Positions 19,819 to 46,817 of a stretch of DNA of 64,000 nucleotides are shown here, piece by piece. The stretch lies in IMG/VR virus record IMGVR_UViG_3300031801_001562; one strand, given 5' to 3'. This DNA is from a virus. Taxonomy: Duplodnaviria > Caudoviricetes. The position numbers were made by a program, and so were the translations under genes. Position 1 is the first letter of the stretch, and the number at the start of each line of letters is the position of its first letter. A model generated the notes under the pieces. The model saw nothing but the letters and a program-made list of their open reading frames with translations, did no database searches and had not been told where the DNA came from.

Positions 19819-20330
19819 TAACTGTGCTCCAGATATTTAACGCCGTCTCGTTCTTCGAGAAGTTTTCTATTTTTCATATGTTCTGCTTCAATTTCTTCTT
19901 TACTTCCGCCAAAATAGCCAACGGCATAACCATTTTCGCACATCCATTTGTTTACATTGGTCCAACCATTCCATTCATCGCCGGTGGCAGTGCAGTTGAT
20001 CCAGAGTTCTCCAAGAATTCTTCCGAATTTACCTCTACTGTCTTTCTCTGGACATCGACATTGGATTTCAATATCATCCCTGTCCGACACAATTGCCCAA
20101 TGTACCCACGATTTAAGGGCGGCCGAGGAGAGTTTTCCGTAAAACTTTTCTGCCAAATCACGAGTTCTTGATTCTGGTGTATCGATTCCCAACAAACGGA
20201 TTCGTCCACAATACCTAACATCGAACCCCAAATCAATAACTGCATCAATAGTATCTCCATCTACAACCTTCTCTACTGCAGTTATGTGGTAAATGAACTC
20301 GCAGGGGTTATCATTTTTATATTCGGCCAT
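19818..20330 (-). CDS. Thermonuclease (SNase-like) family protein
   Basis: VVDGDTID..IDLGF...RIRL.GIDTPE...GKFGRILG. Confidence 0.88.
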   Translation of the reverse strand: MAEYKNDNPCEFIYHITAVEKVVDGDTIDAVIDLGFDVRYCGRIRLLGIDTPESRTRDLAEKFYGKLSSAALKSWVHWAIVSDRDDIEIQCRCPEKDSRGKFGRILGELWINCTATGDEWNGWTNVNKWMCENGYAVGYFGGSKEEIEAEHMKNRKLLEERDGVKYLEHS

Positions 20331-20402
20331 AATTTTCCTTCTTCAAATTTTGTGGCTGACCGTGCTTCTGTTCCCAAGTGACGGCCACAACTCGGCTATA
20401 GT

Positions 20403-20450
20403 CTACGCAGCGAGTGCGTAAGAGTATGCAGTATAATCGTCATTGTTTGC
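20403..20450 (-). other. tmRNA proteolysis-tag reading frame (A)ANNDDYTAYSYALAA*
   Basis: Resume context AAACTAATC-GCA-AAC; ends GCA CTC GCT GCG TAG. Confidence 0.9.
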
Positions 20451-20538
20451 GATTAGTTTGATGGACCGTTACGGTGGTGCCTCTACCGAATACCTCTATA
20501 TCTACCTTCACAATCAATCGAAATCTATTTCAGCCCCA

Positions 20539-20631
20539 TCAACGAAAGTCATATCCAATAAAAAGTGTGGCATAAGTTAAACCCAATGCAAGTATTATAA
20601 TTATTGCTAACCACATTAATTTCTTTTCCAT
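20539..20631 (-). CDS. 30-aa hydrophobic peptide inside the tmRNA intervening segment
   Basis: MEKKLMWLAIIIILALGLTYATLFIGYDFR*; fills nearly the whole spacer between CCA and G1. RBS is weak (AAGAAAG). Confidence 0.5.
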   Translation of the reverse strand: MEKKLMWLAIIIILALGLTYATLFIGYDFR

Positions 20632-20700
20632 AACTTTCTTTGGTGGAGCTGATCGGAATCGCACCGATGTCTTAACTGTTATCTAGATATGTCAACAGTA

Positions 20701-21345
20701 TCATCTGTATTTATTAACCCATGGAACTCTCACAGAAATATCCCTTTTTTCAGATATTCCGGTTGATTGGCCCTTATTAAAAAGAACTATAGGATAATCC
20801 AATTCTTCGTAATTAGAAAAATGTGCTGAATAATAAAAATTATCTGGTATACGAATAGGGTCTAATCTTTTCATCCAAAGATAAGTATCAAAGCCACCAT
20901 ATTTTTCTATATCTTCAAATTCAAATCTTTCCCAAATTTTTAAACTCGTATCTGGTCTCCATCCTAATATTGAAGAATTATATGGAGTACATAATATATC
21001 CCTATTTCTTTGATCTTCGAAATCATCCATATGTTCTCTCCAACGAGCCCATGGCGCACATAAATAATCTTGTTTTTCTACCCAATCAAATAAACTATCT
21101 ATATTACCTTTTATTACAACATCTAAATCAAATGCTAAAACAACATCTTCTGTAAACTGTTCTATTATTGGTGAATGATATAAAACTTTGGTCCACCATT
21201 TAGGAAGAATCGGTTCATCAAATACACGAAAATTTATATTATAAGTAGTATTTTTAAATACCATTTTTTCTAAACGTTGTATATCTTTTATAGTGTATTT
21301 GTCTCCTACACATATGCAGGCAACAGCTCTTCGCATAAAATTCAT
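20701..21345 (-). CDS. Putative GT-A glycosyltransferase
   Basis: CVGDKY...RL..MV, WWTK, FDLDVVI.GNID (DxD), NSSI..W; paralog of 23441-24190. Confidence 0.65.
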   Translation of the reverse strand: MNFMRRAVACICVGDKYTIKDIQRLEKMVFKNTTYNINFRVFDEPILPKWWTKVLYHSPIIEQFTEDVVLAFDLDVVIKGNIDSLFDWVEKQDYLCAPWARWREHMDDFEDQRNRDILCTPYNSSILGWRPDTSLKIWERFEFEDIEKYGGFDTYLWMKRLDPIRIPDNFYYSAHFSNYEELDYPIVLFNKGQSTGISEKRDISVRVPWVNKYR

Positions 21346-45004: not shown

Positions 45005-46817
45005 TCCTCTCCGCCAATCCGGATTGCTCCGTGATATTTTTTGTTACATCTCGATAGTAAAAATCCGAATCGGATTTAGATTTTATCATTTCAATCACCT
45101 CGGCGAACTGTTCATCATTTAAAGTATTTATATATGCTTCAGAAATAAATGTTGTGACATCGTGGAAAAAAAACATATGATGTTCCTTGAAAAATTTAAC
45201 ATCTTGAAATTTTAAAGATTTCATATCATATGCAAAATAACTCTTGTTTATTAAAGATTCTAATTCTGAATATCTTTCATGTATTATTCCATGAGAATTA
45301 ATAATATATGTTTGCAATTTTTTAAAAACTTCAACTAGTGGAACATTGATACATTTGCTTATATAACTTACAACGTCTTTTAGAATAATATGATACCAAA
45401 AACATTCTATTATCCAATAAAACATCCAACACTTAATAACATCAGATTCTGACATTGAAGCGGTTTCTACTATTATATCAGCATATTCTAAATGTTCATT
45501 TTTATATTTGTCTAAGCTGGTATATATACGCCTCTCGGAAAATTCCTTACTTACAAAATAATTATATGGCATATTTCTAACTTTGATTTTATATTTTTTT
45601 TGATATTCCGGCGCACCAAATTCGGAATTAGGAAGAACCATGGCTGGATATATCATCCCATCAGACGAATCATTTTGTAAAAAATATTCCCAATCAGAAA
45701 TAAAACTATTATATGTCATTCCCGGTAAAGGAATTATAAGTTCAACTTCAAAAGGCACATCATTTTGCTTTTGATTATCTACTATTAGATCTAGATCAGC
45801 TATGCTTAAATTATCTCGCCTAATATTAGCTAATGTATCATGATCAAAACTTTGTATAGCTACTCTGGGCGATGGTGTTTTATCAAAGGGTAATGCCTCT
45901 CTGATTAATTTCTGAATTTCCGCAACTCCATTTTTTTTCGGTGGCGTCTTGGCATACCCTAAGGTTGGAAAAAATTCAGGATAGCCCTCTTTTTTGTAAA
46001 CATCAACCAAATGTTGCACGAGTTCAATATCTCTTTTTTTAAATATACCAAAATTTGCATCAGATATCCACATTGCAAACATTTTTTTATCCGCAATGTA
46101 TGTAATTTCATCCTTACACCGATCTATATCAAATATTTTTACTTTTTGATAAGTTAATCCTCCCCAATCACAAAAAGAACATCTAAAGGGACATCCTCTA
46201 TTAGATTCCCATGTAGCATGGAATTTTACATTGGGATGATCTGTCATTAATTTTTCAAAAAATCCAGTGAGATAAGGACTTGGTATTACATCAAGATCTT
46301 TCATTCTAGGATGGGAAGAAGTTCTCAGAATATCATTAGTATCATTTAATATGATCCCATTTATTTTAGAATAGTCTGGAATATCATTAATTCCTTCTAA
46401 TAAAACATTTTCAAAAATTTCTTCGCCTTCATTTACAACAGCAATATCAATATATGGGTGATCTTTAAACCACTTATCCTGTTTAATTGGTATATGAGGA
46501 CCGCCAACAATAATAAGACAATTAGGATATAGTTCTTTAATTTTTTTTGCTATAATACATTGAAAGCTTGTATTCCAAACATAACAGCAAAATGCTACCA
46601 CATCTGGATGATCTAAGGAATCTAATATATCATTTAAAGGATCCCTAAACACAATAGTGTCTTTAAGAATATAATTATTTTTAATCAATTCATTGCGGTA
46701 AGCATATTCCCACAATACCCCTGCCGTATAAGGCAAGAAGGCCCACTCACATTCTGACATGCCCCCTATAGTTTCGTCAGCTGGGGTTATTTGACACATG
46801 TATAAATTTTTATTCAT
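44988..46817 (-). CDS. Cobalamin-binding radical SAM protein
   Basis: LPY..G.L, PDVV.F..Y.WN, IVGGPH, EGEE, ESNRGCPFRCSFCDWG. Confidence 0.92.
   Translation of the reverse strand: MNKNLYMCQITPADETIGGMSECEWAFLPYTAGVLWEYAYRNELIKNNYILKDTIVFRDPLNDILDSLDHPDVVAFCCYVWNTSFQCIIAKKIKELYPNCLIIVGGPHIPIKQDKWFKDHPYIDIAVVNEGEEIFENVLLEGINDIPDYSKINGIILNDTNDILRTSSHPRMKDLDVIPSPYLTGFFEKLMTDHPNVKFHATWESNRGCPFRCSFCDWGGLTYQKVKIFDIDRCKDEITYIADKKMFAMWISDANFGIFKKRDIELVQHLVDVYKKEGYPEFFPTLGYAKTPPKKNGVAEIQKLIREALPFDKTPSPRVAIQSFDHDTLANIRRDNLSIADLDLIVDNQKQNDVPFEVELIIPLPGMTYNSFISDWEYFLQNDSSDGMIYPAMVLPNSEFGAPEYQKKYKIKVRNMPYNYFVSKEFSERRIYTSLDKYKNEHLEYADIIVETASMSESDVIKCWMFYWIIECFWYHIILKDVVSYISKCINVPLVEVFKKLQTYIINSHGIIHERYSELESLINKSYFAYDMKSLKFQDVKFFKEHHMFFFHDVTTFISEAYINTLNDEQFAEVIEMIKSKSDSDFYYRDVTKNITEQSGLAERNEIYA

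Follow-up and report, generated by a model that had tools for sequence, protein, structure and literature searches.

A permuted tmRNA gene of a marine phage whose spacer is a slot for a probable small membrane-peptide gene

The intervening sequence (IVS) of bacterial permuted tmRNA genes was reportedly described by Keiler et al. in 2000. It is the same spacer, between the CCA end and the first base of the coding piece (G1), as the one analysed here, is removed by tRNA-type processing and is absent from the mature RNA; the bacterial IVS has been described as non-coding, whereas the IVS in the window (the whole 64,000-nt stretch of viral DNA that was analysed, IMG/VR record IMGVR_UViG_3300031801_001562) carries an open reading frame (ORF) for a predicted membrane peptide. 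A tmRNA database paper of 2025, which covers 97,000 sequences, remarks on one tRNA-Ala gene and one repeat element as IVS contents (PMC11915505). In phages, the same form of acceptor piece, IVS and coding piece, of the alphaproteobacterial type, occurs in Melnitz and in pelagimyophages, which like the source of the window are marine, AT-rich and T4-like (PMC9004378); that paper does not mention the tmRNA IVS. A promoter lies directly upstream of the Melnitz tmRNA, with a -10 region that reads TATAAATA. The Melnitz IVS of 139 nt (MZ577097.1, around 46070-46210; 1560-1710 in locus L218) contains an ORF with a GGAG-ATG start that is hydrophilic, unlike the window peptide, and the GenBank record annotates the tmRNA alone and not this ORF. 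The Melnitz ORF starts with MFKWLSK, is basic, and continues beyond G1 into the sequence of the mature tmRNA; the IVS ORFs of L210 and of L409/L503 have the N-terminus and a YLSG motif in common with it. The IVS of pelagiphage HTVC008M, also unlike that of the window, is a 49-nt hairpin without an ORF; the permuted tmRNA of this phage (NC_020484.1, 145161-145370; L632, 1500-1710) scores 90.6 bits and is unannotated in RefSeq. In these two papers (PMC9004378, PMC11915505) and in full-text literature searches, we found no published mention of coding capacity in a tmRNA IVS.

Rfam searches of the window revealed a permuted tmRNA gene on the minus strand, on which all features described below also lie. 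The tmRNA_permuted model (RF04321) matched 20403-20702 over its full length with 110.6 bits (cut-off 47), and the alpha_tmRNA model (RF01849) covered 20758-20357, likewise over its full length, with 61.8 bits (cut-off 50); ARAGORN reported no tmRNA in the window, where Rfam does call one. The gene has the permuted order, with the T-arm, the 3' acceptor strand and CCA followed by the spacer and then by G1 and the 5' acceptor strand, and the two acceptor strands are complementary (GCTCCACCA ... GGGGCTG). The acceptor piece, made up of a 5' pairing strand, the T-arm, the 3' acceptor strand and CCA, extends over 20641-20702 (RF04321 model positions 1 to about 64). The IVS (103 nt, 20538-20640), as defined by sequence, Rfam, folds and covariation, is a hairpin that is closed by a stem and bears the ORF in its loop, and the coding piece, which begins with G1 at 20537, occupies 20357-20537 in the RF04321 and RF01849 alignments. 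Its tag reading frame, read off the sequence at 20450-20403, is ANNDDYTAYSYALAA followed by a stop, and the tag has hydrophobic residues plus AA at its end, as looked for in a tmRNA. After the tag stop, a long imperfect hairpin (GTGGCCGTCAC...GCACGGTCAGCCAC, 20357-20400) forms the 3' end of the coding piece; directly after this hairpin come the Shine-Dalgarno (SD) motif and ATG (20330) of a thermonuclease-like gene, with no terminator between. The tmRNA gene is flanked by this thermonuclease-like gene and by a gene for a 216-aa protein. The G+C content of the window is about 31% (AT-rich), and the nearest cultured relatives of the nuclease neighbour are those of the OM43 phage Melnitz and of T4-like cyanophages, at less than 50% identity. 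The source is an uncultured marine T4-like phage with a two-piece ssrA gene. Searches of 50,697 cultured-phage records by blastn with the locus and by tblastn with the peptide gave no match, and the low-complexity filter may hide the peptide in the latter.

Folds revealed a hairpin in every IVS, ORF-bearing or not. The closing helix of this hairpin joins the strand that begins at the third base after CCA to a strand whose last base lies 7 nt before G1; among 91 distinct IVS, pairing in this register amounted to 86%, compared with 37-55% in shifted registers, and all six pair types were found per column. The closing helix is amply supported by this covariation. In the window, the 5' strand found in the folds (GAAAGTTATG, 20629-20638) contains the start codon and abuts the SD-like run, and the 3' strand, found in the folds and from synonymous diversity (TATGACTTTC, 20544-20553), lies within codons 26-30. 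The duplex was calculated at -10.3 kcal/mol, the probability of being unpaired was about 0 at IVS positions 3-12 in the predicted ensemble, and the closing helix stacks under the acceptor stem in the predicted fold of the precursor. Synonymous diversity (pS) was 0.17 in the 3' helix strand and 0.35 in the loop, and this half-level points to a constraint that probably acts on the RNA; the presence of the 3' helix strand also explains why the final 20 nt of the ORF hardly vary, at synonymous sites included. Since the fold-back is also present in ORF-less spacers, it belongs primarily to tmRNA processing. The ORF is cargo in the loop of a processing hairpin, and IVS of 14-42 nt are the same hairpin minus the cargo.

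An earlier note on this DNA had claimed a 30-aa ORF nearly filling the 103-nt spacer, and both its coordinates and its translation proved exact. The ORF (20539-20631), recognized as that of a putative single-pass membrane peptide from its translation, dN/dS, shuffles and AlphaFold2, comprises 30 codons and a TGA; it runs from an ATG at 20631-20629 to the TGA at 20541-20539 and occupies 93 of the 103 nt of the IVS, with a single base, T at 20538, between TGA and G1 (20537). The same note had drawn attention to the TGA lying one base before the RNase P site. The position is correct, but it is not specific to the ORF, since the stop codon is included in a leader, GTTGAT before G1 (20538-20543), that ORF-less spacers keep too; the TGA beside the RNase P site is thus a property of the tmRNA leader that is used by the ORF. 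Residues 5-27 of the peptide are uncharged, with a maximal 15-residue Kyte-Doolittle mean of 2.7, and AlphaFold2, run with 25 homologues, predicted one helix over residues 3-29 (pLDDT 92). An ungapped alignment of the window family with a 28-aa sister family has M1 and Y20 in every sequence, and conservation of E2 and G26 is 90% or higher. The ATG is preceded by an SD-like purine run, AAGAAAG (20634-20640), which is weak and is paired in the closing helix; in most relatives the run reads AAGGAAG, AGGAG or AGGAGG and lies 5-9 nt ahead of the ATG. A 41-aa version with a GTG start (20664) was ruled out, as this GTG lies inside the T-arm and is missing where the T-arm reads GTTCG. A signal peptide with cleavage after TYA is unlikely, since the hydrophobic stretch runs on to the C-terminus.

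For comparison, IMG/VR loci were gathered via the two flanking genes and by pattern scans for permuted tmRNAs with IVS of 93-123, 124-154 and 62-92 nt, and an IVS was extracted only where it was bounded by a complementary acceptor stem. Alignment of orthologous spacers and calculation of dN/dS, the check that had been suggested for this ORF, revealed an intact ORF of 30 codons without indels in 26 of 26 distinct nucleotide variants of the window type, which came from more than 20 metagenome datasets, and purifying selection specific to its frame. The dN/dS was 0.37 in the ORF frame, compared with 1.07 and 1.35 in the other two (pooled Nei-Gojobori, 26 variants), and 0.51 for loop codons 4-24, which are under no RNA pairing constraint; positions 5-24 of the variants contain hydrophobic or small residues only. 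In dinucleotide-preserving shuffles of the window-type spacer, an ATG-ORF of at least 30 codons appeared in 1.4% of cases and one that was also equally hydrophobic in 0.04%, and shuffles of each peptide cluster gave an ORF at least as long in 0.2-3% of trials. The caution that an AT-rich spacer could give a hydrophobic ORF by chance is answered by this value of 0.04% and by the recurrence of such ORFs in many independent relatives.

An ATG-ORF fills 59 of the 85 IVS of at least 90 nt, and 55 of these 59 are transmembrane (TM)-like, with a single TM segment and 26-33 aa. The filling ORFs fall into 19 peptide clusters with largely unrelated nucleotide sequences, including at least 15 divergent single-TM families of 26-33 aa. 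An SD motif of the GGAG/AGGA/AAGG type before the ATG was found in 41 of 58 ORF-bearing IVS, as against 8 of 55 ORF-less IVS (first 14 nt). Across unrelated peptides, the hydrophobicity, the length of 26-33 aa and an aromatic residue near position 20 have been kept far more strictly than composition would predict. Selection acts on the peptide as such and not just on the act of translating it; its strength is no more than moderate (dN/dS 0.4-0.5), and the conservation of the C-terminus is in part a matter of the RNA. On this comparative evidence we hold with high confidence that the IVS ORF represents a protein-coding gene for a small membrane peptide. The proposal that the tmRNA precursor doubles as an mRNA gains the support of comparison in four respects, namely conservation of the ORF, dN/dS, the tie between SD and ORF, and retention of the TM character across unrelated sequences.

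Analysis of a maximum-likelihood tree of tmRNA bodies, built with the IVS removed, showed that 52 of the 53 IVS with a TM-ORF belong to one clade of 64 (SH-aLRT 89; 95 for a starred inner clade of 57 rows). Nested in this clade were six short IVS, two IVS with a hydrophilic ORF and a frameshifted copy (L149/L160). Outside it, the helix without an ORF is seen in 30 distinct phage IVS of 62-92 nt and in many others about 100 nt long. A 61-nt deletion in L003/L004, whose flanking proteins are 95-97% identical to those of the window, removes the ORF and keeps the hairpin, and L087 has a second short IVS with a deletion remnant of the window-type ORF; in some settings at least, the gene is thus dispensable. 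That the tmRNA does not need the ORF is shown by close relatives whose spacers are short and ORF-less. In L024 and L025, the flanks are 94-95% identical over 400 nt on each side, the IVS are 53% identical and the TM peptides are unrelated. L124 and L144, like this pair, have near-identical flanks and unrelated IVS loops with different TM peptides. Conversely, loops up to 96% identical were found in tmRNA bodies that are only 60-75% identical. This distribution points to probable replacement of cassettes inside the hairpin; the ORF is accessory cargo, and the IVS loop behaves as a slot that retains, exchanges or loses small ORFs. We assign a probability of about 80% to the reading that the ORF is a real, translated membrane-peptide gene carried as exchangeable cargo.

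Other kinds of cargo were encountered among the gathered loci. A second type is a hydrophilic ORF of 53-56 aa with a conserved C-terminus, RHEHF..DW..DLWD or, more fully, RHEHF.KDWD.DLWD, in L026 (IVS 183 nt) and L088/L089 (IVS 196 nt); it had no Pfam or PHROG match and was found only in the IVS position among the fetched loci. A third type, also hydrophilic, has the N-terminus MFKW or MFNW and is present in Melnitz, L210 and L409. In L149 and L160 (IVS 107 nt), two independent contigs, the same frameshift splits a membrane-peptide ORF of the MD..IIW.. type, which may be a pseudogene or may undergo a programmed shift. In bacteria, an Rfam search of 151 alphaproteobacterial genomes, one of which is unpublished and enters none of our claims, gave tmRNA_permuted matches mostly of 185-260 nt, compared with 300 nt in the window, and no TM ORF was found in the 53 alphaproteobacterial IVS measured (3-133 nt); in a pattern scan of genome contigs, nearly all matches were chance ones in GC-rich genomes.

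Upstream of the acceptor piece, a motif resembling T4-type late promoters (AATAAATA) is located at 20708-20715, and it puts the predicted start at about 20702, where the Rfam tmRNA model begins. In T4-type late promoters the motif is TATAAAT(A) (PMC9004378). NATAAATA lies 73-77 nt upstream of the CCA end in 47 of 110 distinct upstream regions, which differ in the preceding gene, and the motif was hardly seen elsewhere in the 140 nt examined. It is found at the window offset in many loci, for example L188, L088, L102 and L128. A search of 20200-21000 gave neither a sigma70-type promoter nor an intrinsic terminator. In some relatives and in Melnitz, the late motif is combined or overlaps with an early promoter of the form TTGACA-N17. 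The Melnitz paper assumed early expression only of the phage tmRNA (PMC9004378), and the motifs described here suggest expression that is late, or early plus late. Judging from the motif, tmRNA and ORF are probably late transcripts in which the acceptor piece is the 5' leader of the ORF.

Three RNA libraries, from two studies, include Logan contigs in which the IVS is continuous with the tmRNA piece on either side (for example 20503-20674, 20503-20582 and 20531-20647), with DNA carry-over possible in such libraries. These contigs are loosely compatible with a precursor; they are confined to about 20351-20713 and uneven in depth, and contigs of this kind cannot show transcript ends or levels. 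One low-depth contig in RNA run X18 lacks 96 nt of the IVS, with 20543 linked directly to 20640 and 23 letters on the shorter side; this junction could be that of a relative with a minimal IVS or an event at the RNA level.

Maturation had been proposed to destroy the message for the peptide. This does not hold, as the cut after CCA (20641) and the RNase P cut (20538|20537) both lie outside the ORF, so the excised 103-nt IVS keeps the SD, the ATG, the 30 codons and the stop. Processing would change only the context of the message, leaving it with a 9-nt leader, 1 nt after the stop and a ribosome-binding site (RBS) predicted to be locked in a helix of about -10 kcal/mol. The analysis shows how the locus is built, that the closing helix covaries, that the ORF is selected and in which clade it occurs; translation, the order of events and the function belong to an inferred model. 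The ORF would be transcribed together with the tmRNA, probably from the late promoter directly upstream, so that the acceptor piece would act as its 5' leader. The SD and ATG lie in one strand of the closing helix and the last codons in the other, and the helix would stack under the acceptor stem. A ribosome could load only while the helix is open, and most easily during transcription, when the 3' strand, which follows the RBS by about 85 nt, does not yet exist. While translating or terminating, the ribosome would hold the helix and the acceptor stem unfolded, and at the TGA it would cover G1-G7 and block the acceptor stem. Once the ribosome leaves, the RNA would fold, and RNase P at G1 together with 3' trimming at CCA would release the two tmRNA pieces. 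The IVS would be freed as an intact mini-mRNA with its RBS occluded and its stop codon 1 nt from the 3' end, and peptide output would therefore be limited and tied to the production of tmRNA. We expect the peptide to work in the late phase of infection, as a small protein of the inner membrane whose target, bound or perturbed, would be some component of the membrane.

Searches of Pfam and PHROGs with the peptide gave only chance-level matches (E up to 1), and homology to S23p was not found. The nearest cluster in the ESM Atlas, 'YoaK small membrane protein', had a value of 0.84, below a meaningful level. An exhaustive profile search of public protein clusters retrieved only 4 representatives, all of the same peptide family. 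The public calls P0002-P0004 are inconsistent with one another; two read through the TGA as Trp, and one is extended through the T-arm from a GTG or upstream start. The size and architecture of the peptide match those of small bacterial membrane proteins that act by binding larger membrane complexes, and also those of type I-toxin-like peptides. The late-promoter motif and the cassette-like diversity fit a role in host interaction or in the timing of lysis. The roles named in the earlier note, as exclusion factor, toxin or protease adaptor, would be guesses.

Within the reading of a translated cargo gene, one option is an effector that damages membranes in the manner of type I toxins or of holins and viroporins; the 5'-3' fold-back would restrain its synthesis, as in hok mRNA, until late release helps to time lysis or shuts down the host. 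Type I toxins have 19-60 aa, and the peptide resembles them in size and in its single hydrophobic helix; the RBS is locked by pairing of the 5' and 3' ends of the mRNA, the late-promoter motif is present, and diversity of the cassette-like sort is typical of lysis and host-interaction genes. However, the flanks encode the 216-aa protein and the thermonuclease-like protein, with no endolysin or spanin as a neighbour; no antisense element appeared in the ORF lists at the locus; the Pfam, PHROG and profile searches found no similarity to any toxin family; and 30 aa is less than in known holins, which usually have about 60 aa or more and are identified by the context of a lysis cassette, absent here. 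We therefore regard an effector of this kind as a minority option. An equally tentative idea is that hypervariable membrane peptides in a dedicated IVS expression slot, exchangeable by recombination, could be determinants of an arms race, acting for example in superinfection exclusion, in anti-defence or in control of the membrane proteolysis of ssrA-tagged proteins, with their synthesis gated by the folding and processing of tmRNA and amounting to a short burst of peptide per precursor.

Translation had also been suggested to time maturation, a plausible idea given that the helix stacked under the acceptor stem has the RBS in one strand and the last codons in the other. Taken further, the ORF might be a cis element resembling a leader peptide, translated with the peptide being irrelevant, in which the ribosome opens the closing helix and the acceptor stem and so paces folding and RNase P cleavage. 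Such an element would agree with the position of the RBS and the last codons in the two helix strands and of the stop 1 nt before G1, and with a peptide sequence that is hypervariable between lineages. Transit of a ribosome, however, needs no membrane helix, yet hydrophobicity, a length of 26-33 aa and the aromatic residue at about position 20 are kept; within the family, dN/dS is below 1 in the loop, which is free of RNA constraint; and relatives with ORF-less hairpins of 14-42 nt keep apparently intact tmRNA genes. We consider a purely cis-acting role improbable. Least likely by far is a non-coding spacer in which the ORF is a by-product of an AT-rich, structured IVS: AT-rich sequence can yield hydrophobic ORFs, and ORF-less IVS of 60-130 nt, closed by the same helix, are present in many permuted tmRNAs of phages and bacteria, but against it stand the shuffle tests and the frame-specific dN/dS, the 26 variants without any stop or frameshift, the occurrence of SD motifs specifically with ORFs, and the retention of ORF and TM character where the nucleotide sequence is unrelated.

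The membrane-peptide gene carried as cargo changes how a tmRNA IVS can be viewed. The IVS has hitherto been treated as disposable; in this locus the spacer of a permuted tmRNA gene is a gene slot, and it contains a conserved, selected gene that probably encodes a small protein, which would add a third coding layer to a transcript already acting as tRNA and mRNA. It would be a natural example, in a bacterial virus, of an mRNA whose ends are set by tRNA-processing enzymes, and a compact system for the competition between translation and RNA folding or processing. Such genes are systematically missed by annotation pipelines, being masked by the tmRNA call, miscalled from a GTG start or read with TGA as Trp. 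The results suggest that uncharacterised membrane peptides of phages make up an abundant family in ocean viromes.

Several known systems share parts of this arrangement. In tRNA-punctuated mRNAs, such as mitochondrial transcripts and the ORFs of the T4 tRNA cluster, the ends of the message are set by RNase P and by tRNA 3'-end processing; in the window, by comparison, the two flanking 'tRNA halves' are those of one tRNA-like domain that closes over the message. Dual-function RNAs, such as RNAIII/hld of S. aureus and SgrS/SgrT, combine a functional RNA with an mRNA for a small, sometimes membrane-active peptide. The peptide of RNAIII/hld and of SgrS/SgrT is encoded within the mature RNA, whereas that of the window lies in the excised part, so that the two functions would separate physically. 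The type I toxin mRNA of hok/sok encodes a small hydrophobic peptide, and its RBS is sequestered by pairing of the 5' and 3' ends. The RBS in the window is likewise end-paired, but no antisense RNA (ORF lists) and no plasmid or addiction context was seen there. The IVS of 23S rRNA that carries an S23p ORF in Coxiella and Leptospira is likewise an excised, stem-closed spacer with an ORF in its loop (PMC4990558). The S23p ORF of Coxiella is seemingly unexpressed and decaying, and its IVS is excised by RNase III (PMC4990558); the ORF in the window differs in being under purifying selection, in having an SD-like motif of its own and in being bounded by sites of tRNA-type processing, and the two have no sequence relation. 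With these differences, the S23p ORF in the stem-closed IVS of 23S rRNA is the closest published analogue of the membrane-peptide ORF in the tmRNA IVS.
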